DNA of 64,000 nucleotides from Thermoanaerobaculia bacterium. GTDB lineage: Bacteria > Acidobacteriota > Thermoanaerobaculia > UBA5066 > Gp7-AA6. The DNA is taken from the NCBI GenBank assembly GCA_036271035.1, contig DATBBK010000217.1, positions 3,833 through 67,832 of the forward strand, given 5' to 3'. The stretch's first letter is position 1; every line of letters begins with the position of its first letter. Of this stretch, positions 1 through 48,362 are shown in pieces. The notes under the pieces are model-generated. The model was not told the DNA's origin. It saw only the letters and a program-made list of their open reading frames with translations, and did no database searches. A program made the position numbers and the translations under genes.

Positions 1-140
1 TGGGGCGCTCTGGGCACGCCGATTCTCAACATTCGCGTCGTGCGCTGAAAGCGGCAGTCGGGTTTCCCAAGTGTCGGACTCGGCGCTTTTTCGGGCCGAG
101 AGGGGCAACGGGAGACCTGACCCCTCGGGTCGGACATCGT

Positions 141-37866: not shown

Positions 37867-39547
37867 GGAAAGGTTCCCCGAGGTCGGAGTCCTCCTGAAG
37901 GGAGGCCGGGAGAAGGGTTATCTCCTCTACGAGGAGATCCACACGATTCTCTCCGATGAGGCGACGGCCTCGCCGAAGGACATCGAGACGATCTACACGC
38001 GCTTCTTCGAGCTCGGCATCGAGATCGTCACCGACCCGGACCGTGCCGCACGCCGGCGCGCGGCCGACGCCGCGGAGTCCTCGGAGGAGGCGCGCGAGGC
38101 GGTCGAGAAGACCAACGACCCGGTGCGCATGTACCTGCGCGAGATGGGCACGGTCAAGCTGCTCGACCGCGAGGGCGAGGTCCGCATCGCCAAGCGCATC
38201 GAGCAGGGCGAGGCGAAGATCTACCAGGCGCTCGCGAACAACCCGGTCGTGCTCGAGGAGATCCTGAAGCTCCTCGAGAACGCGGGACGCGACTCGCGCA
38301 TCGTCAACGAGCTCGTCAACACGCCGGAGACGGAGGACGAGGAAGACGAGGAGCCGGATAGCAACCTCGACGATCGCGCGACGCGCCGCATCGAAAACAT
38401 CCTGAACAGCTTCCGCAAGATCGGAGCCCTCGACAAGGACATCAAGCGGATGAAGTTCAAGGCGCGCACGATCAAGAAGGGCACGAAGTCCCTCGCGCGC
38501 ATCGAGGCCTCGATCGACAAGAAGATCGCCGATATGGCGAAGCTGATCCGCGCCGCGGATTTCACGCCCGCCGTGCTCAATCGCGCGATCGGCATCCTGA
38601 AGGACATCGACCGGCAGATGGCGACTCCGGAGCTCACGATCCGCCAGGACACGAACACGCTCAAGAAGGAGAAGAACCCGACGCGGATCGACTTCTACAA
38701 GCGGCGGATCACGAAGTACCGCAAGTCGCTCCGCGAGCTCGAGCAGAAGTTCGGTGTCTCGCACGAGGACGTCAAGAAGACGCTCCGCATGGTGCGCGAG
38801 GGCGAGGACGAGGCGGATCAGGCGAAGCACGAGCTGATCGTCGCGAACCTGCGCCTCGTCGTCTCGATCGCGAAGAAGTACACGAACCGCGGGCTGCAGT
38901 TCCTCGACCTGATCCAGGAGGGGAACATCGGCCTCATGAAGGCGGTCGAGAAGTTCGAGCACCGCCGCGGCTACAAGTTCTCGACTTACGCGACGTGGTG
39001 GATCCGGCAGGCGATCACCCGCGCGATCGCGGACCAGGCGCGGACGATCCGCATCCCGGTCCACATGATCGAGACGATCAACAAGCTGACGCGTACGTCG
39101 CGGTCGCTCGTGCAGGAGCTCGGCCGCGAGCCCAACGCGGAGGAGATCGCGAAGCGGATGGACATGCCGGTCTCGAAGGTCCGCAAGATCATGAAGATCG
39201 CGCAGGAGCCCATCTCGCTCGAGACCCCGATCGGCGAGGAGGAGGATTCGCATCTGGGCGACTTCATCGAGGACCGTCAGGTCCTCTCCCCGATCGAGGC
39301 GGTCCTGGTGTCGAACCTCCAGGATCAGACGCGCCGGGTGCTGAAGTCTTTGACGCCCCGCGAGGAGCAGGTCCTCAAGATGCGGTTCGGCGTCGGCGAC
39401 GGTTCGGAGCACACCCTCGAGGAGGTCGGCCGCTCGTTCAACGTCACGCGCGAGCGGATCCGGCAGATCGAGTCGAAGGCGCTGCGCAAGCTGCGCCACC
39501 CGTCCCGGGCGAAGAAGCTCAAGCCGTTTCTCGAGACGATTCGCTGA
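37856..39547 (+). CDS. rpoD: RNA polymerase sigma factor RpoD (sigma-70)
   Basis: regions 1.1-4 incl. [30 protein letters not shown] and 4.2 HTH; TTG start overlapping the dnaG end. Confidence 0.9.
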
Positions 39548-39613
39548 GGAGCGATCGCACGGCCCCGGGGGGAAGCAGCACGGCCCCGGGGACGAAGCTC
39601 GGAGGATCGGCCC

Positions 39614-39786
39614 GCAAGTCCCGCGGCGAAGAAGTCGCTTACGAAACGCAGCATCCCGCAAGTCGGGCCTGCGTCTTCGATGGGGTCAGGTCTTCGGTTT
39701 TCGGAGCTCGAGGTCTTCGTGGCGTCGTCGCTCTCGCGTCGTCGCTCCGAAAACACGAACAGCTGACCCCGAGTCCGGCATCCGGT
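39614..39786. repeat. ~170-nt conserved structured intergenic element, copy A (downstream of rpoD, upstream of tRNA-Met)
   Basis: about 75% identical to 42861..43036; shared 11-bp long-range stem GTTTTCGGAGC/GCTCCGAAAAC enclosing a variable loop; shared blocks AGTCCCGCGG, CTTCGATGGGGTCAGGTCTYCGG, CGGCATCCGGT. Confidence 0.6.
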
Positions 39787-39829
39787 AAGTGCCGGGTTGG
39801 CGTTCGGGGTCGGTTTGTTATATTCATCG

Positions 39830-39903
39830 GGGTCCATAGCTCAGCGGTCCAGAGCCACCGGCTCATAACCGGTCAGACCCCGGTTCGAATCCGGGTGGAC
39901 CCA
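39830..39903 (+). tRNA. tRNA-Met (anticodon CAT; elongator-type), CCA not encoded
   Basis: acceptor GGGTCCA/TGGACCC, anticodon stem ACCGG with loop CTCATAA, T-arm CCCGG-TTCGAAT-CCGGG; followed by a terminator. Confidence 0.85.
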
Positions 39904-39967
39904 CGAACGAGGACGACAGATTGAGGCGTTTGACGAATCATTCGAAGACGATAAAGACGGCAACGAA

Positions 39968-40002
39968 AGGGTGTTCCACAACCGGGACACCCTTTTTCTT
40001 TT
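39968..40002 (+). terminator. rho-independent terminator after tRNA-Met
   Basis: stem AGGGTGT/ACACCCT with 12-nt loop followed by TTTTTCTTTT. Confidence 0.6.
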
Positions 40003-40030
40003 CGGGGCGCGCCCCGCGAGGGGTGAACCG

Positions 40031-40744
40031 ATGACGGATCTTCTCGGCCAGCTCTACCGGCTGCAGAGCCGGATCCGCTTCGTTCACGAGCGCGAGAAGA
40101 AGCGCGACACGGTTCCCGAGGACCTCGTCGAGGTCGACCGCGGCTTCCAGGAGAAGGTCCAGGCGGTCACGGAGCTGAAGGCGCGGCTCGGCCAGGCCGA
40201 GCTCGAGCGCCGCAAGGCGGATGGCGAGCTCGCCGACCTCCGCGAGAGGCTCAAGAAGTACCAGACGCAGCTCCGGAGCGTGCAGTCGAGCCGCGAGTAC
40301 TCGGCGGCCCTGAACGAGATCGACGGCGTCGAGCGGCAGATCCGCACGACCGAGGATCGCGCCCTCGAGCTCGAGGAGGAGATCGAGAAGTCCCGCGCCG
40401 ACCTCAACGAGCGCGAGAAGAATCTCCCCGGCGAGACCGAAGCGCACGAGGAGCGGATGAAGGACTGGCGCAGCGAGCAGCGCGCGATCAACGACGAGCT
40501 CGCCGGAGCGCGCCAGGAGATCCAGGTCCTGGAGGCGCAGATACCGCCTCGGGATCGCGCCGAGTTCCACCGGCTCGTCGACAAGAAGCACGGCCTCGCG
40601 GTCGTGCTGGTGGTCGGCTCGTCCTGCTCCGCATGCCACGTGAGGGTCCGTCCGGCCGCGATGCAGGCGCTGAAGCAGGGTCGCGAGATCATCTACTGCG
40701 ATAGCTGCAAGCGAATTCTGTACTACGAACCGCAGTCCTCTTGA
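40031..40744 (+). CDS. zinc-ribbon/coiled-coil protein (COG1579/DUF164-like)
   Basis: GAGGGGTGA RBS before ATG 40031; long coiled-coil followed by C-x2-C...C-x2-C zinc ribbon (SCSACHVRV...IIYCDSCKRI); the listed GTG 39971 start lies inside the tRNA terminator. Confidence 0.7.
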   Translation: MTDLLGQLYRLQSRIRFVHEREKKRDTVPEDLVEVDRGFQEKVQAVTELKARLGQAELERRKADGELADLRERLKKYQTQLRSVQSSREYSAALNEIDGVERQIRTTEDRALELEEEIEKSRADLNEREKNLPGETEAHEERMKDWRSEQRAINDELAGARQEIQVLEAQIPPRDRAEFHRLVDKKHGLAVVLVVGSSCSACHVRVRPAAMQALKQGREIIYCDSCKRILYYEPQSS

Positions 40745-40778
40745 GGCGTCCTCGCTTCGAGGACTGCTCTCATGCCCC

Positions 40779-41219
40779 GTGAGATTCCGGGCACACATCG
40801 ACGGCGCCGCCAGGGGTAATCCCGGACCGGCCGGCGCCGGCGTCTACGTCCACGCGGAGGAGGGCGTCCCCGTCGAGGAGCACTTCGAGGCGCTCGGACG
40901 CGCGACCAACAACGTCGCCGAGTACCGCGCGCTGCTGCTCGCTCTCGACCGCGCCGCCGCGCGGGGCGCGACGGAGGTCATGATCGAGTCGGACAGCCTT
41001 CTCCTCGTCGAGCAGATGCGCGGCCGCTATCGCGTCAAGGCGCCCCATCTCCAGGTCCTCTTCGCCGACGCGCTGAGGCAGGCCAAGGCGTTCGCGCGCT
41101 TCTCGATCCAGCACGTGCGCCGCGAGCAGAACGTCGACGCCGACCGCCTCGCGAACCTCGGCGCGGACGAGTCCGAGCGACGGCTCGGCGGCCTGACGTC
41201 TCCACCGCCGGAGACATGA
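40779..41219 (+). CDS. ribonuclease H family protein
   Basis: RNase H-like DEDD residues (AHIDGAARGNPGPAGAGV...NNVAEYRALLLAL...ESDS...NVDADRLAN). Confidence 0.7.
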   Translation: MRFRAHIDGAARGNPGPAGAGVYVHAEEGVPVEEHFEALGRATNNVAEYRALLLALDRAAARGATEVMIESDSLLLVEQMRGRYRVKAPHLQVLFADALRQAKAFARFSIQHVRREQNVDADRLANLGADESERRLGGLTSPPPET

Positions 41220-41935
41220 GCGCCGACCGGCAGGCCGAGATCGCGAGGCGCCGCGCGGAAATCCTCGAAAGCGTCGCCGCCGCGGCATCCCGGTCCGGCC
41301 GCATCGCCGGGGACGTGACCCTCATGGCGGTGACGAAGACCCACCCGGCGGAGGTCGCGCGCCTCGCCGCGCGCGCCGGCATCACGCGCTTCGGCGAGAA
41401 CCGGGTCCAGGAAGGCGCGCCGAAGGCCGAGGCGCTCCGCGCCGAGTTTCCGAGCCTGGAGTGGCGCCTGATCGGCCCTCTCCAGACCAATAAGGCGAAG
41501 ACGGCGCTACAATGGTTCCAGGTGCTGGAAACCTTAGACCGGGAACGACTTGCGGAGCGCCTGGAGGCGCTCCTCGGCGGAGAAGGAACGTCGCGCGTCG
41601 TTCCCGTCCTGCTCGAGATCAACGTCGGCGGGGAGGCGTCGAAGTCGGGCGCCGCGCCGGACGACGCGCAACGCCTTTTTGACGCCGCGCTGGCCTGCGC
41701 GCACCTCGAGGTGCGCGGGCTGATGACCGTCCCGCCCTACGACGCCGATCCCGAGAGATCGCGGCCGTACTTCGCCGCGCTGCGCGAGCTGCGCGACCGC
41801 CTCGCGCGGTCTTCCGGCCGGCCGCTCCCCGAGCTCTCCATGGGCATGAGCCACGACTTCGCGGTGGCCGTCGAGGAGGGAGCGACCGAGATCCGCGTCG
41901 GTACCGCACTCTTCGGAACGAGGAGCGCGGCGTGA
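41216..41935 (+). CDS. yggS: YggS family pyridoxal-phosphate homeostasis protein
   Basis: alanine-racemase N-domain fold with the PLP lysine motif (LMAVTKTHP), typical ~235 aa. Confidence 0.85.
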   Translation: MSADRQAEIARRRAEILESVAAAASRSGRIAGDVTLMAVTKTHPAEVARLAARAGITRFGENRVQEGAPKAEALRAEFPSLEWRLIGPLQTNKAKTALQWFQVLETLDRERLAERLEALLGGEGTSRVVPVLLEINVGGEASKSGAAPDDAQRLFDAALACAHLEVRGLMTVPPYDADPERSRPYFAALRELRDRLARSSGRPLPELSMGMSHDFAVAVEEGATEIRVGTALFGTRSAA

Positions 41936-42228
41936 ACGTCGGCAGCGCGTTCATGGCGGGGGTCCTCCAGGTGATCTTCGCGATCCTTTCGGTGATCCAG
42001 TGGATCGTGATCATCGCCGCGGTGATCTCGTGGGTGAATCCGGATCCACGCAATCCGATCGTCCAGTTCCTCTACCGCACCACCGAGCCGCTGCTCCGGC
42101 CGTTTCGCCGGATCCTTCCGCCCGGACGCACGGGAGGCATCGACTTCTCGCCGCTGCTTCTCCTGCTGCTCATCCTCTTCCTCAAGGTGTTCCTGTCGCG
42201 GCTCTTCCTCGTCCCGATGTCCTTCTGA
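41932..42228 (+). CDS. yggT: YggT family membrane protein
   Basis: ~98 aa, two TM helices; conserved position directly after yggS. Confidence 0.7.
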   Translation: MNVGSAFMAGVLQVIFAILSVIQWIVIIAAVISWVNPDPRNPIVQFLYRTTEPLLRPFRRILPPGRTGGIDFSPLLLLLLILFLKVFLSRLFLVPMSF

Positions 42229-42243
42229 TCAGGAGGTCCCGAA

Positions 42244-42762
42244 ATGCGCACTCGCCTGACGCCGCTCGAGATTCAGAAGCGTGAGTTCTCTCGCCGGTGG
42301 AAAGGGCTCGACCCGCAGGAGGTGCAGAACTTCCTCCACGAGGCGGCCGAGGACATGGAGATCCTCGCGCGCGAGAACGCCGACCTCGAGACGCGGATCC
42401 GCTCGCTCCAGCAGGAGAACGAGGAGCATCGCGAGCGCGAGCGCATCCTGAAGCAGACGCTGCTCTCTGCGCAGCAGGCCTCGGAGGACATCCGCGGCGC
42501 GGCGCGCAAGGAGGCGGAGCTCGTGGTCCGCGAGGCGCAGGACTCGGCCGAGAAGCTGACGCACCACGCGCTCCAGCGCTCCGCCGAGATCGAGAAGGCG
42601 ATCCACGAGCTGAAGGTTCAGCGCACGAACTTCCGCCTGCAGCTCGGGAAGATGATCGAGCTCTTCCAGCAGGTCCTCGACTTCGACCGCGAGGAGAGCG
42701 ACAGGGACAAGCCGCTGTCGTACATGACCAGGAAGGCCGAGCGGGAAGAGACGGCGGGGTAA
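42244..42762 (+). CDS. divIVA: DivIVA domain protein
   Basis: N-terminal DivIVA motif (LTPLEIQKREFSRRWKGLDPQEVQNFL) + coiled coil. Confidence 0.8.
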   Translation: MRTRLTPLEIQKREFSRRWKGLDPQEVQNFLHEAAEDMEILARENADLETRIRSLQQENEEHRERERILKQTLLSAQQASEDIRGAARKEAELVVREAQDSAEKLTHHALQRSAEIEKAIHELKVQRTNFRLQLGKMIELFQQVLDFDREESDRDKPLSYMTRKAEREETAG

Positions 42763-42860
42763 CGCGGCCGCCTTCGCATCTTCGGGACGTAGGGGCGGGG
42801 CTTGCCCCCGCCCGCTTTGAGACGATCACGGCTCCGGTCACGAGGCTCCGAGGACGACCC

Positions 42861-43024
42861 GCGAGTCCCGCGGCTGCTAAGTCGCTCATGGAACGAACCA
42901 GCCCGCGAGTCCGGCCTGCGCGCTTCGATGGGGTCAGGTCTCCGGTTTACGGAGCTCTTGACGCGCGCGGCAAGTCGCTGTTCGGTCGTCGCTCCGAAAA
43001 CGCGGACACCTGACCCCGAGCGCG
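42861..43024. repeat. ~170-nt conserved structured intergenic element, copy B (downstream of divIVA)
   Basis: about 75% identical to copy A (39614..39786); preceded by a GGGGCGGGGC/GCCCCCGCCC hairpin; continues into the tandem array. Confidence 0.6.
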
Positions 43025-43125
43025 GCATCCGGTCAACAGCCGCACGGCATCCGGTTAAGAGCTGCGCGGCATCCGGTCGACAGCGGCACGGCATCCGGTT
43101 AAGAACCGCACCGCATCCGTAGAAT
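43025..43125. repeat. tandem direct repeats, 22-nt unit x ~4.5 (GCATCCGGTYRASAGCNGCRCG), alternating two unit variants, abutting the hutI start
   Basis: units at 43025, 43047, 43069, 43091 plus a degenerate unit at 43113; the unit is the amplified terminal motif (GCATCCGGT) of the 170-nt element. Confidence 0.7.
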
Positions 43126-43131
43126 GCCACC

Positions 43132-44406
43132 GTGACTTCGCCTCGCTCCTTCGCGGTCCGGAACATCGGCACTCTCGCGACGCCTCTCGGGCACAGCGCG
43201 CGCGTCGGTCGAGACCAGGGTGCCATCTACCGCATCCACGATGCCGCGCTGCGCGCCGACAACGGCCGCATCGTCTTCGTCGGGACCGAGGCGGACTACC
43301 GCCGCGAGTTCTCCGGCCGCGCCGCGGACGAGGAGCTCGACGCCGGCGGCCGCGCCGTCATTCCCGGCCTCGTCGACGCGCACACGCATCCGATCTGGCT
43401 CGGCGACCGCGGCGTCGAGATCGGCCGCCGGCTCGCCGGCGAGAGCTACGCCGCAATCGCCGCGGAGGGTGGCGGGATCCAGGCGACGGTCCGCGCGACG
43501 CGCGCCGGCTCCGACGCACAGCTGCGCGACGCGACCGCGGCCCGGCTGGCCCGCATGCGCGCGCACGGCACGACGACAGCCGAGGCGAAGTCCGGCTACG
43601 GGCTCGAGGAGGAGCAGGAGATCCGCGCGCTGCGCCTTCTGAAGGCGCTCTCGGGCGAACCGGGTCTGCCGCGGCTCGTACCGACGCTCCTCGCCGCGCA
43701 CGAGATTCCCGCCGAGTACCGCGACGACCGCGGCGAGTGGATCCGGATCATCGTCGACTCGATCATTCCGCGTGTCGCTCGGGAGGGGCTCGCGGCGTAC
43801 TGCGACGTCTTCTGCGAGGAGGGCGTCTTCACCGTGGAGGAGTCGCGCCGCATCCTGACCGCGGCGCGCCGCGCGGGGCTCGGGCTTCGGGTCCACGCCG
43901 ACGAGCTCGCGCGCTCCGGCGGCGCGATGCTCGCGGCCGAGCTGTTCGCCGCATCCGCGGACCACCTCCTCTTCATCGAGGCGGCCGAGATCCGCGCGCT
44001 CGCTCGCGCCGGCACCGTCGCCGTGGTGCTCCCCGGGACCGCATGGTGGATGCGTTCGCGCCGCGCCCCCGCGCGGGCGCTGGTCGAGGCGGGCGTGCCC
44101 GTCGCGGTCGCATCCGACTCGAACCCAGGAACCTGCAACACGGAGTCCCTCGCCGCGGTCGCGGCGCACGCGTGCCTGGACTCGGGCCTCTCCGTGGAGG
44201 AGACGCTGACCGGCATCACCCTCAACGCCGCCGCCTCGCTCGGTCTGGCCGCGGAGATCGGCTCGCTCGAGCCCGGGAAGGCCGCGGACCTCGTGGTGCT
44301 CGACGCCCCCGACGACCGCCACCTCATCTATCATTGGGGCACGAACCTCGCCCGTCACGTGGTCGTCGGCGGGCGGATCGGCGCGCCGGTGATCCCGAAG
44401 GAGTAG
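43132..44406 (+). CDS. hutI: imidazolonepropionase
   Basis: amidohydrolase metal-binding motifs (DAHTHP, HADE, ASDSNPG) and HutI-wide similarity. Confidence 0.85.
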   Translation: MTSPRSFAVRNIGTLATPLGHSARVGRDQGAIYRIHDAALRADNGRIVFVGTEADYRREFSGRAADEELDAGGRAVIPGLVDAHTHPIWLGDRGVEIGRRLAGESYAAIAAEGGGIQATVRATRAGSDAQLRDATAARLARMRAHGTTTAEAKSGYGLEEEQEIRALRLLKALSGEPGLPRLVPTLLAAHEIPAEYRDDRGEWIRIIVDSIIPRVAREGLAAYCDVFCEEGVFTVEESRRILTAARRAGLGLRVHADELARSGGAMLAAELFAASADHLLFIEAAEIRALARAGTVAVVLPGTAWWMRSRRAPARALVEAGVPVAVASDSNPGTCNTESLAAVAAHACLDSGLSVEETLTGITLNAAASLGLAAEIGSLEPGKAADLVVLDAPDDRHLIYHWGTNLARHVVVGGRIGAPVIPKE

Positions 44407-48074: not shown

Positions 48075-48362
48075 CTCATCCCGAGCGAGGCGAAAGATCC
48101 GCGAGTCGACACGCGGTGACGGCAAAGAAGGCGAACCCGTTCGGCCTTCGCCGGTCATCCCCAGCCCGCAGGCCAGAGGAATTCCTTTCGTAGCGGAAGC
48201 AGCGTCCGCGGATCATCCGAGCGCGAGGGATGCCCGAGTCCAGGCGGAGGATGGAGTCGATGTGGTGCGTCATCCTGAGCGAAGCGACGGATCCCCGAGT
48301 CGACACGAGAGAACCGCGAGGAAGCCGGGGATCCTTCGCCGCTGCGCGGCTCAGGATGACGC
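48075..48362. repeat. cluster of 2-3 palindromic MITE/REP-like repeats (half copies at ~48075-48105 and ~48211-48240; full copy 48270-48362 with TIRs GTCATCCTGAGCGAAGCGACGGATCC / GGATCCTTCGCCGCTGCGCGGCTCAGGATGAC)
   Basis: same family as 25109, 52846, 57039, 57884, 58950, 60057; shared inner motif GAGTCGACACG. Confidence 0.7.

Follow-up and report, generated by a model that had tools for sequence, protein, structure and literature searches.

A mosaic hairpin repeat of Thermoanaerobaculia with arms that resemble the terminal repeats of RAYT-like transposons

We analysed a stretch of 64,000 nucleotides from a Thermoanaerobaculia bacterium (contig DATBBK010000217.1, positions 3,833 to 67,832; the whole stretch is called the window below), in which two intergenic spacers carry copies, A and B, of a repeat element whose most likely origin is in the ends of a small transposon. 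The genes around them, identified with Pfam and ARAGORN, run dnaG, rpoD, copy A and tRNA-Met, and then DivIVA, copy B, an amidohydrolase (HutI-like) and FTCD_C. This is the context given by an earlier sequence-only reading, which had placed one copy after rpoD and before tRNA-Met and the other after divIVA and before hutI, and had taken both for a candidate small RNA (sRNA) or MITE (a miniature inverted-repeat transposable element). The two copies do align end to end over their full length (39614-39786 for A, 42861-43036 for B), and the shared blocks it had named (AGTCCCGCGG, AAGTCGCT, and CTTCGATGGGGTCAGGTCT) are all found in both, as is the common end CGGCATCCGGT, which is the core of a 22-nt tail unit. 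Identity between the copies is about 78% over the family core, and the 19-mer CTTCGATGGGGTCAGGTCT occurs in the 64 kb only at A and B, with 0.01 occurrences expected. Conservation in the family begins upstream of the starts first proposed, at about 39578 in A and 42827 in B; a family profile (nhmmer) matches A at 39591-39800 (E = 1.4e-55) and B at 42847-43046 (E = 1.4e-49). Neither copy holds a credible open reading frame (ORF), again as first described: a gene call based on G+C content at third codon positions (GC3) puts no coding ORF over either. A small ORF from the conserved ATG in TTCGATGGGG was rejected: A and B do not share its frame, since TCGATGGGGTCAGG and CTGACCCC are 71 nt apart in A but 70 nt apart in B, a difference of 1 nt across the hairpin.

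In the family alignment the element is about 210 nt long and consists of five parts. A weakly conserved 5' extension (...GGCYCCGTCACGAAGCTCGGAGGAC) is followed by module M1 (GCCCGCAAGTCCCGCGG, then GCGACTAAGYCGC or GCGCTTCGAGTCGC) and module M2 (AAAGCAGCAGCCCGCAAGTCGGGCCTGCGCGCTTCGAT). Then comes a hairpin of 88-90 nt, GGGGTCAGG...CCTGACCCC, made of two inverted arms of about 28 nt, each with GGGGTCAGG at its outer end, and finally a tail, GAGCACGGCATCCGGTGAAC...; GAGCACGGCATCC is conserved 3' of the hairpin throughout the family. The M1 and M2 blocks are highly conserved in an alignment of 117 sequences, M1 being partly fixed by the metagenome search pattern described below, and each 5' module closes with CTTCGA(G/T) in part of the family; in the L041/L008/L045/L031 subfamily (loci are cited by their L numbers), M1 and M2 end in CTTCGAGGGG and CTTCGATGGGG. 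Conservation does not stop at the hairpin: it continues for about 110 nt outside the 5' arm and for about 20 nt outside the 3' arm. The apex differs in sequence among copies but measures 31-32 nt in 100 of 109 of them, a near-fixed length that could reflect a structural RNA constraint or a protein-spacing constraint. No structure with two-sided support was found for the 5' modules: the alternative pairings (CCGC/GCGG vs GCGGC/GYCGC; a GCCCG/CGGGC hairpin vs CGCAAG/CTTCG) show only one-sided changes in the family alignment, or a partner that varies freely.

The stem described at first, 11 bp of GTTTTCGGAGC/GCTCCGAAAAC, is real. It is perfect in A, with 36 nt between its arms, and has one mismatch in B (GTTTACGGAGC), but its extent had been drawn too small: it is the inner part of an imperfect hairpin of 88-89 nt. 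The complete hairpins fold on both strands (z about -3.5), at -50.8 kcal/mol on the plus and -45.6 on the minus strand in copy A, and at -55.2 and -52.5 kcal/mol in copy B.

The modules are often duplicated, truncated, and recombined across the family. There is an extra tandem hairpin in L041, L026, and L171, additional 5' modules in L045 and L031, an inverted half-copy upstream of the element in L053, and a second unit whose 5' arm is replaced by a different insert in L141, L081, L056, L172, and L132. The number of tail units per copy also varies: none in 28 copies, one in 86, two in 8, three in 2, and four in a single one, which is copy B. Two arrangements recur. In L141, L081, L102, L056, L172, and L132, the second unit lies about 110-220 nt downstream of a canonical copy, with an insert of about 90 nt containing CCACGGTCCGCGAAGCGGACCGCTAGAGGTCCGAG in place of the 5' arm and apex, followed by a normal 3' arm and tail. 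Another conserved palindromic repeat, CCCTCTCCCCACGCGTGAGCGGGGGGAGAGGGTTGGGGTGAGGGGGG, lies about 60-90 nt upstream of the element in L075, L079, L059, L172, L056, L146, L134, and L077, which suggests composite repeat clusters.

We scanned species-representative genomes with the pattern TCGATGGGGTCAGG, a gap of 55-85, and CTGACCCC, which matched 53 stretches. About 18 of them are clear homologues, from metagenome-assembled genomes (MAGs) that carry the label Thermoanaerobaculia or Acidobacteriota; several share gene order with the window, their DNA being 75-92% identical, and one MAG (DAHUXD01) has six pattern-exact copies over five contigs. DATJPZ01, CAVXRK01, CAVZNW01, and CAVTON01 are further MAGs with the family. 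A scan of metagenomes, anchored on M1 and the hairpin start, gave at least 120 soil and rhizosphere contigs, the Ga0070664, Ga0157375, and Ga0207691 series among them. The profile search over the collected sequences shows that further copies are many: at least 136 are full-length, 117 of these are distinct, and their mean pairwise identity is 71%. All full copies come from Thermoanaerobaculia-like Acidobacteriota MAGs or from soil metagenomes. Their density in flanking sequence (about one extra copy per 190 kb) gives an estimate of 20-30 per genome. Paralogues within a genome are only 68-88% identical, with no near-identical copies, and thus show no sign of recent transposition; orthologues at the rpoD site are 77-94% identical. 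A collection of viral contigs gave zero matches to the element, and hence no link to phages. Rfam 15 on the window returned only tRNAs above the gathering threshold and nothing at E ≤ 10 over A and B, and neither Rfam nor literature searches by topic and sequence string turned up a description of this repeat family. The family itself is therefore undescribed in Rfam and the searchable literature; its kind is known, from repetitive extragenic palindromes (REPs) and the hairpins of paired REPs (REPINs), bacterial interspersed mosaic elements (BIMEs), enterobacterial repetitive intergenic consensus (ERIC) and BOX elements, and the repeats of TIRtrons.

Pairing in the hairpin stem is under selection. 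In a mutual-information scan of the 117-sequence alignment, the top covarying positions are those of the stem. One pair is C-G in 48 sequences, T-A in 41, and G-C in 25, and is paired in 98%; a second is T-A in 53, G-C in 42, and C-G in 6; a third is G-C in 57, T-A in 24, and A-T in 3. We also scored a 58-sequence alignment of the hairpin against a specified structure, with 500 shuffles and slid structures as controls. Standard pairs fill 93.7% of the cells (87.8% when shuffled) and the covariation score is 0.134 (0.058 when shuffled), values reached in both cases by 0 of the 500 shuffles; the slid controls are 27-54% paired. Seven pairs changed on both sides, and there are at least eight matched mid-stem variants, among them GTCTTCGG/CGCGAACAC, GGCTTCGG/CGCGAACCC, GCCTGTAC/GTCCACGCC, GCCTGCAT/ACGCACGCC, and TCCGG/CGCGG. 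One stem pair is a T-G wobble in 23 of the 58 sequences. Within the window, TTCG/CGAA in copy A against TCCG/CGGA in copy B is a two-sided change that keeps the pairs. The mid-stem variants fall into subfamilies, so the independent compensatory events are modest in number. Further copies and compensatory changes, whose absence was to have refuted the sequence-only reading, are both present; the sRNA half of its alternative is not supported as a stand-alone gene.

Flanking genes, taken from the GC3-based call, place the element at the ends of genes. The upstream gene is co-oriented in 83 and not in 30 of the 113 copies for which one was called, and downstream 82 copies have a convergent gene and 35 a co-oriented one. 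Of the copies with both flanking genes called, 46 lie between convergent genes, 24 in sense and 18 in antisense in co-directional spacers, and 5 between divergent genes; from the stop of a convergent gene to the 3' end of the element, the median distance is 20 nt. The element thus favours gene 3' ends and avoids promoter regions, with no clear orientation preference relative to transcription. Its neighbours are unrelated housekeeping or metabolic genes (rpoD, dnaG, rpmA, rpsT, efp, polA, a PilB-like ATPase). No mobile-element gene recurs near the copies: the 432 neighbouring proteins cluster into housekeeping families only, and Pfam on 95 cluster representatives gave no transposase among the best 25 families listed. 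A riboswitch or leader was rejected in view of the variable orientation and the unrelated genes on the flanks. A promoter search over 39300-43400 found one promoter-like site, that of tRNA-Met, and none that belongs to the element. Likewise, there is no U-tract terminator at the element on either strand: the sequence after the hairpin is GAGTCCGGCATCC or GAGCGCGGCATCC on the plus strand and ATCGAAG on the minus strand. A canonical U-tract terminator does follow tRNA-Met (39965-39996), so the genome uses such terminators.

This leaves little room for a family of trans-acting sRNAs, possibly derived from 3' untranslated regions (UTRs), in which the variable apex would be the segment that recognises targets. 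The conserved scaffold, the apex that changes in sequence and hardly in length, and the covariation of the stem would all suit such RNAs, as would the greater number of G-U pairs in the family's plus-strand folds (314 vs 123 on the minus strand). The energies point the other way, with a mean of -51.6 kcal/mol for the minus strand against -50.2 for the plus strand and the minus strand more stable in 65% of copies; the two tests contradict each other, and neither strand is clearly favoured for folding. With the nearly random orientation in co-directional spacers, this tells against the sRNA gene originally proposed, as do the missing promoter, terminator, and Rfam match and the free duplication, truncation, and inversion of the modules. 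We consider an sRNA family highly improbable; the element is very probably a dispersed repeat, and not a dedicated sRNA gene or riboswitch.

A better case can be made for a cis-acting RNA structure at transcript 3' ends, as the primary selected function and whatever the origin of the sequence. The hairpin would stop read-through, block 3' exonucleases, or be a target of RNase III, and either orientation would work because it is nearly palindromic, as in REP and ERIC elements. The location right after stop codons fits this explanation, and so do the folding of both strands, the retention of pairing over about 30% sequence divergence, the lack of a canonical terminator from rpoD to the tRNA-Met promoter in a genome that has U-tract terminators, and the persistence of the rpoD-site copies in several genomes. 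However, no U-tract follows the hairpin on either strand, a simple hairpin role leaves the conserved non-palindromic modules and the 22-nt tail array unexplained, and some orthologous spacers lack the element or carry other repeats. As the primary function, we find this rather unlikely.

Orthologous sites show turnover. Between rpoD and tRNA-Met, the window, L014, and L053 carry the element in sense (the last with an extra inverted half-copy), and L036 and L024 carry it inverted, with the hairpin about 8 nt from the rpoD stop codon. In the divIVA/hutI spacer, it is in sense in the window and L015. Compared with L015, L025 has the whole spacer inverted as far as the former ATG, which is part of the inversion, and the downstream gene has an apparent TTG start in this state. 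The same spacer in L135 (3781-3908) holds one different hairpin of 127 nt, running from stop codon to start codon, with the same first 14 nt as the element (GGGGTCAGGTCTCT) and different inner arms; in L014, it holds two solo arms plus other repeats, and in L036 other repeats only, with no element. Inversion, replacement, and absence at orthologous sites are the behaviour of recombinogenic or mobile repeat DNA and are unexpected for a conserved RNA gene. The tRNA-Met promoter block next to copy A is kept in the orthologous loci L014, L053, L036, and L015.

Some details of these sites were recorded as well. The L025 inversion (L025:5440-5830 compared with L015:2990-3270) takes in some 45 nt of unique sequence and is not accounted for by inverted repeats on its flanks. 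The L135 hairpin is near-perfect (27-bp arms, -75.8 kcal/mol), starts within the stop codon context GGGTAGGGGTCAGG, and ends directly before the ATG. As a general cause of the inversions, recombination of the 3' arm with an inverted arm farther out was rejected: such an outer arm is present in L053 only, and the other candidates are downstream tandem units in the same orientation.

Both orientations at two orthologous sites in close relatives could also be the mark of an inverton, or of an array of protein-binding sites, whose flipping would regulate tRNA-Met or hutI. The 22-nt tail units abut a -10-like box of the HutI-like gene, and the inversion in L025 reaches right to the start codon. Yet no inverted repeats flank the element beyond the hairpin arms, no promoter lies within it, no recombinase gene is found among its neighbours, and most copies have convergent genes on their two sides, so that a switch would find nothing to drive there. 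We give this explanation very little credence.

The remaining 35 of the 53 matches in the genome scan come from outside the family. They are hairpins in which TCGAT directly precedes GGGGTCAGG, followed by arm, loop, complementary arm, and CCTGACCCC; they are 72-101 nt long and fold at -29 to -71 kcal/mol. Their hosts belong to more than ten phyla and include Elusimicrobia, Beta- and Gammaproteobacteria, Desulfobacterota, Planctomycetota, Rokubacteria, Opitutaceae, Actinomycetota (Thermoleophilia among them), a Halobacillus, Bradymonadaceae, and other Acidobacteriota. Complete genomes with such hairpins are those of Dokdonella sp. MW10 (NZ_CP197094), Desulfofustis glycolicus DSM 9705, Scleromatobacter humisilvae, and Halobacillus salinus. 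These matches are not due to chance, as about two are expected for 22 specified bases by our own estimate. Counted without gaps as far as the second mismatch, their arms have a median length of 20; in a null in which only the 8 bp of complementarity imposed by the search pattern are forced, the median is 9 and the 95th percentile 11. Eleven of the 35 share GGGGTCAGGTCTTG, and several of these loci have tandem TCGATGGGGTC half-sites upstream or an extra CTGACCCC downstream. Rfam on 18 loci (17 of the cross-phylum ones and L135) gave no match at the hairpin, and a tRNA and a thiamine pyrophosphate (TPP) riboswitch elsewhere in the loci.

Related hairpins in other phyla, presence that varies among orthologous sites, and arms that form inverted repeats of 26-28 bp beginning with GGGG would also fit a classical MITE, derived from a DDE-type insertion sequence or a Tn3-family transposon, with the arms as GGGG-initiated terminal inverted repeats (TIRs). 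However, the immediate flanks of the hairpin are conserved in nearly all copies (TTCGAT on the left, GAGCAC on the right) and are therefore not target-site duplications; these were judged at the hairpin flanks, the outer boundaries of the whole mosaic being diffuse. In addition, the arms bound the hairpin core only and leave about 130 nt of conserved sequence outside, no transposase of any kind recurs near the copies, and the tolerated T-G wobble fits folding as a single strand better than a double-stranded binding site. A classical MITE is thus an improbable source. Of the alternative originally offered, sRNA or MITE, the half on repetitive or mobile DNA fits well, as seen in the estimated 20-30 copies per genome, the modular duplications, the variable tail-unit number, and the turnover of sites, but the element is not a textbook MITE, having sequence conserved beyond the arms and no target-site duplications.

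The ends of the hairpin point to another class of enzymes. In many species, genes for tyrosine transposases that resemble REP-associated tyrosine transposases (RAYTs) are flanked by long inverted repeats and not by REPs (Di Nocera et al. 2013, PMC3733652). The units were named 'TIRtrons' and the enzymes 'TIRYT'; several of the repeats contain GGGGWSAS, and they occur singly, as dimers, or in clusters, in families of moderate abundance (PMC3733652). Of 26 TIRYTs, 20 belong to subclass 2.1 of TnpA_REP (Quentin et al. 2018, PMC6006769), and most of the repeats flanking them contain GGGG[AT][CG]A[CG] (PMC6006769). The enzymes are spread across phyla, and whether they mobilise these repeats was left undecided (PMC3733652, PMC6006769). 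Read from the outside in, both arms of copies A and B begin with GGGGTCAG, which fits GGGG[AT][CG]A[CG]; this string is invariant at the 5' arm in the 117-sequence alignment, where it is fixed by the search patterns. The repeats of our element also behave as dispersed families, in which hairpin dimers are the rule and solo arms or tandem extra hairpins occur (L014, L041, L026, L171, L053).

We took TIRYT protein sequences from the supplement of Quentin et al. and inspected the DNA around their homologues. At the aba2776 TIRtron of K. versatilis (L181:440-530 and 1309-1340), the gene has GGAAAATC followed by GGGGACAGACGAAATAAT on both sides, and its left GGGGACAGACGAAATAAT is preceded by five tandem half-repeats GAAAATCGGGG, which resemble M1 and M2. 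The right repeat abuts the stop codon. A second locus of this type, in another genome, has GGGGACAGACGGGACG on both sides (AACC directly before GGGGACAGACGGGACGTTTTC). Of the four aba2776-type loci inspected, these two carry GGGGACAGAC repeats, the other two have none within 500 nt, and GGGGTCAGG was found at none of the four. Two more acidobacterial TIRYT groups, the aca645 and aba1552 types, were rejected as candidates, being flanked by other palindromes (CCCACATCTCGCAGAGATGTGGG, GGCACGGCTTCCAGCCGTGCC) and not by GGGGWSAS.

On balance, we lean towards the view that the element is a lineage-specific mosaic around head-to-head terminal repeats of the TIRYT type, an analogue of REPINs for this branch of Y1 transposases. 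Its core would be the two TIRs of a RAYT-like Y1 (HUH) transposon (TIRYT / TnpA_REP subclass 2.1), joined head to head across the apex (31-32 nt in most copies, 30-31 nt in A and B) that would stand in place of the transposase gene; the hairpin core would then have the layout of a 'miniature TIRtron' or a REPIN. Upstream, the outer end would recur in part in M1 and M2, each time after a small CCGCAAGTC module. A Y1 transposase acting in trans would recognise the folded single-stranded hairpin and cleave beside the junction of TCGAT and GGGG; it would have spread the copies, and perhaps still does. Present copies would be old and vertically inherited. They probably have a secondary role as hairpins at transcript ends, acting as a read-through barrier or an exonuclease block, given their position in 3' UTRs and the ability of both strands to fold; transcription within neighbouring 3' UTRs is predicted and likely. 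There is also a hint of an additional role at the level of the host, for example at the transcript 3' ends of housekeeping operons, in the near-fixed apex and the conserved CCGCAAGTC modules. More tentatively, and with rather less confidence than in the mosaic itself, the hairpins with TCGAT before GGGGTCAGG may at large be the non-autonomous partners of TIRYT (TnpA_REP subclass 2.1), of which the 210-nt mosaic would be one elaborated lineage. If so, they would form a second, independent system of within-genome replicators of the REPIN-RAYT type, so far only glimpsed in the literature.

Several observations weigh against a TIRYT origin. No Y1-like ORF was found in the window and 173 loci (1.1 Mb), either with regular expressions or with phmmer searches using RayT, IS608 TnpA, and six TIRYT sequences. 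None of the inspected TIRYT loci, which come from other lineages, is flanked by GGGGTCAGG arms, and the aca645 and aba1552 groups carry different palindromes. The motif match was made post hoc, and the suggested link consists of a degenerate 8-nt motif together with architecture and distribution. The copies are old, with no evidence for recent movement. The conserved unit is larger than the hairpin and shows no target-site duplication, and a transposon accounts neither for its strongly conserved non-palindromic modules nor for an apex of near-fixed length and varying sequence. Finally, the covariation is uneven, being concentrated in a few subfamilies, and the metagenome sample is biased by its anchors on M1 and the hairpin start.

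The main interest of these results lies in the conserved GGGGTCAGG hairpins across phyla and in a link to TIRYT that is testable. They provide a concrete candidate hairpin substrate for a poorly understood branch of enzymes, with cleavage between TCGAT and GGGG if our reading of the junction holds. In annotation, hundreds of intergenic regions of Thermoanaerobaculia could be labelled correctly and not mistaken for sRNA genes or riboswitches. The divergence of about 30%, the compensated stem variants, and the repeated inversions could help to separate selection on the hairpin from the decay of a repeat. The hairpins would also be of importance to gene expression in an abundant uncultured lineage of soil if they shape the 3' ends of transcripts such as those of rpoD, rpmA, rpsT, and efp.

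The features of the window are collected in Table 1, together with the cross-phylum loci. Between the rpoD stop and copy A, there is a direct repeat of GCACGGCCCCGGGG (39557-39570 and 39578-39591), the second unit of which is the start of the 5' extension of the copy. Downstream of copy B, the tail array reaches a TAGAAT box, beyond which the HutI-like gene starts with a GTG at 43132. At 43100-43134, the last degenerate 22-nt unit leads into TAGAAT, six bases, and the GTG, with no Shine-Dalgarno sequence; the mRNA of this gene may be leaderless, with the repeat array providing its -35 region. A solo GGGGTCAGGTCT arm near the start of the window has TTTTTCGGGC just upstream and is possibly a decayed third copy: the profile match there is not significant (nhmmer E = 0.83), and only a 12-mer matches. 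Exact GGGGTCAGG 9-mers occur four times in the window, with 0.46 expected. Two other kinds of repeat are present. A second, unrelated family, GCGTCATCCTGAGCGAAGCGAAGGATCC, occurs in both orientations in at least seven places of the window, and in L036 and L014 the divIVA/hutI spacer is filled with repeats of this kind. Palindromes that are GC-rich and carry a GTAG tag, GTAGGGGCGG(GGC/CCC)...CCGCCC, resemble classical GTAG REPs and are found at 1725-1772, 25220-25267, and 42789-42815; the last, with a weak T-run after it, separates the DivIVA stop from copy B.

Table 1. Positions of the element, its parts, and other features in the window, with the loci of related hairpins in other phyla.
Feature	Position	Strand	Remarks
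Copy A, whole mosaic element	39578..39790	+	Between the rpoD stop (39545-39547) and the tRNA-Met promoter; 5' boundary from family conservation
Copy A, 5' modules	39610..39681	+	M1 GCCCGCAAGTCCCGCGG...AAGTCGCT; M2 AAACGCAGCATCCCGCAAGTCGGGCCTGCGTCTTCGAT; CCGCAAGTC in both
Copy A, long imperfect hairpin	39682..39770	+	5' arm 39682-39709 (GGGGTCAGGTCTTCGGTTTTCGGAGCTC); apex 39710-39740 (31 nt); 3' arm 39741-39770 (...CAGCTGACCCC)
Copy A, tail	39771..39790	+	One unit, GAGTCCGGCATCCGGTAAG
Copy B, whole mosaic element	42827..43040	+	After the DivIVA stop and a GTAG-tagged GC-rich palindrome
Copy B, long hairpin	42930..43017	+	5' arm 42930-42957; apex 42958-42987 (30 nt); 3' arm 42988-43017
Tandem array of the 22-nt tail unit	43020..43119	+	GCRCGGCATCCGGTYRASAGCN; Tandem Repeats Finder (TRF): period 22, 4.4 copies, score 124
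Candidate relic of a third copy, solo arm	107..124	-	GGGGTCAGGTCTCCCGTT; exact GGGGTCAGG; low confidence
tRNA-Met promoter (outside the element)	39797-39824	+	TTGGCG-16-TATATT
tRNA-Met (outside the element)	39830-39904	+	
GCGTCATCCTGAGCGAAGCGAAGGATCC repeats	25109-25148, 48076-48133, 48270-48327, 57116-57152, 57885-57942, 57938-57977, 60118-60155		
Cross-phylum hairpin loci (1)			L001, L003-L005, L007, L009-L012, L017-L023, L028-L030
Cross-phylum hairpin loci (2)			L033-L035, L037-L040, L042-L044, L046-L050, L052

Among known systems, palindrome-associated transposable elements (PATEs) and other miniature derivatives of IS200-IS605 share with our element the lack of visible target-site duplications, a conserved pentanucleotide (here TCGAT) directly 5' of the hairpin foot, and a plausible recognition of single-strand hairpins. 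This TCGAT resembles TTGAT, the target of ISDra2. The ends of these derivatives are, in contrast, two separate subterminal hairpins, left and right, and not one large hairpin, and cleavage at TCGAT is in our case an inferred step. ERIC elements (also called IRU, intergenic repeat units) and the BOX elements of S. pneumoniae were compared by architecture, as sequence similarity is not expected. They too are non-coding intergenic repeats of 100-200 nt with a long hairpin, lie in both orientations in 3' regions (transcribed in their case, probably so in ours), and have no known transposase of their own; BOX is also modular, with a sub-unit of variable copy number. They differ in the phylum of their hosts, and in that the terminal motif of our element points to a candidate family of mobilising enzymes.

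The REPIN-RAYT system and the enterobacterial BIMEs agree with our element in several respects. Here as there, two inverted units pair into a long imperfect hairpin that evolves by compensatory changes, and the elements are extragenic, found mostly at gene 3' ends and in convergent spacers, in either orientation and as mosaics, with long vertical inheritance (probable in our case). However, our element has no GTAG (or CGTC) tag, its 5' flank being TTCGAT, and its arms of about 28 nt are not individually palindromic, whereas REPs are self-palindromes of 20-40 nt. The copy number is low (20-30 per genome by our estimate), and paralogues at 68-88% identity form no cloud around a 'master sequence'. 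GTAG-tagged palindromes are present in the window as separate elements, one of them next to copy B.

The TIRs of TIRtrons are not identical either. Here, the repeats are fused to one hairpin and embedded in a mosaic of 210 nt that also contains the CCGCAAGTC modules and the tail unit of 22 nt; the acidobacterial TIRtrons that were verified read GGGGACAGAC, whereas the repeat described here reads GGGGTCAGGTC; and no TIRYT gene was seen beside the GGGGTCAGG repeat in the loci inspected. What the two have in common is the outer end of the arm, in which GGGGTCAG fits GGGG[AT][CG]A[CG], the organisation in singles, dimers, and clusters of moderately abundant families, the tandem partial copies of the outer end that adjoin the repeat (as at the aba2776 locus of K. 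versatilis), and a distribution of hairpins across phyla like that reported for the TIRYT enzyme (PMC3733652, PMC6006769).

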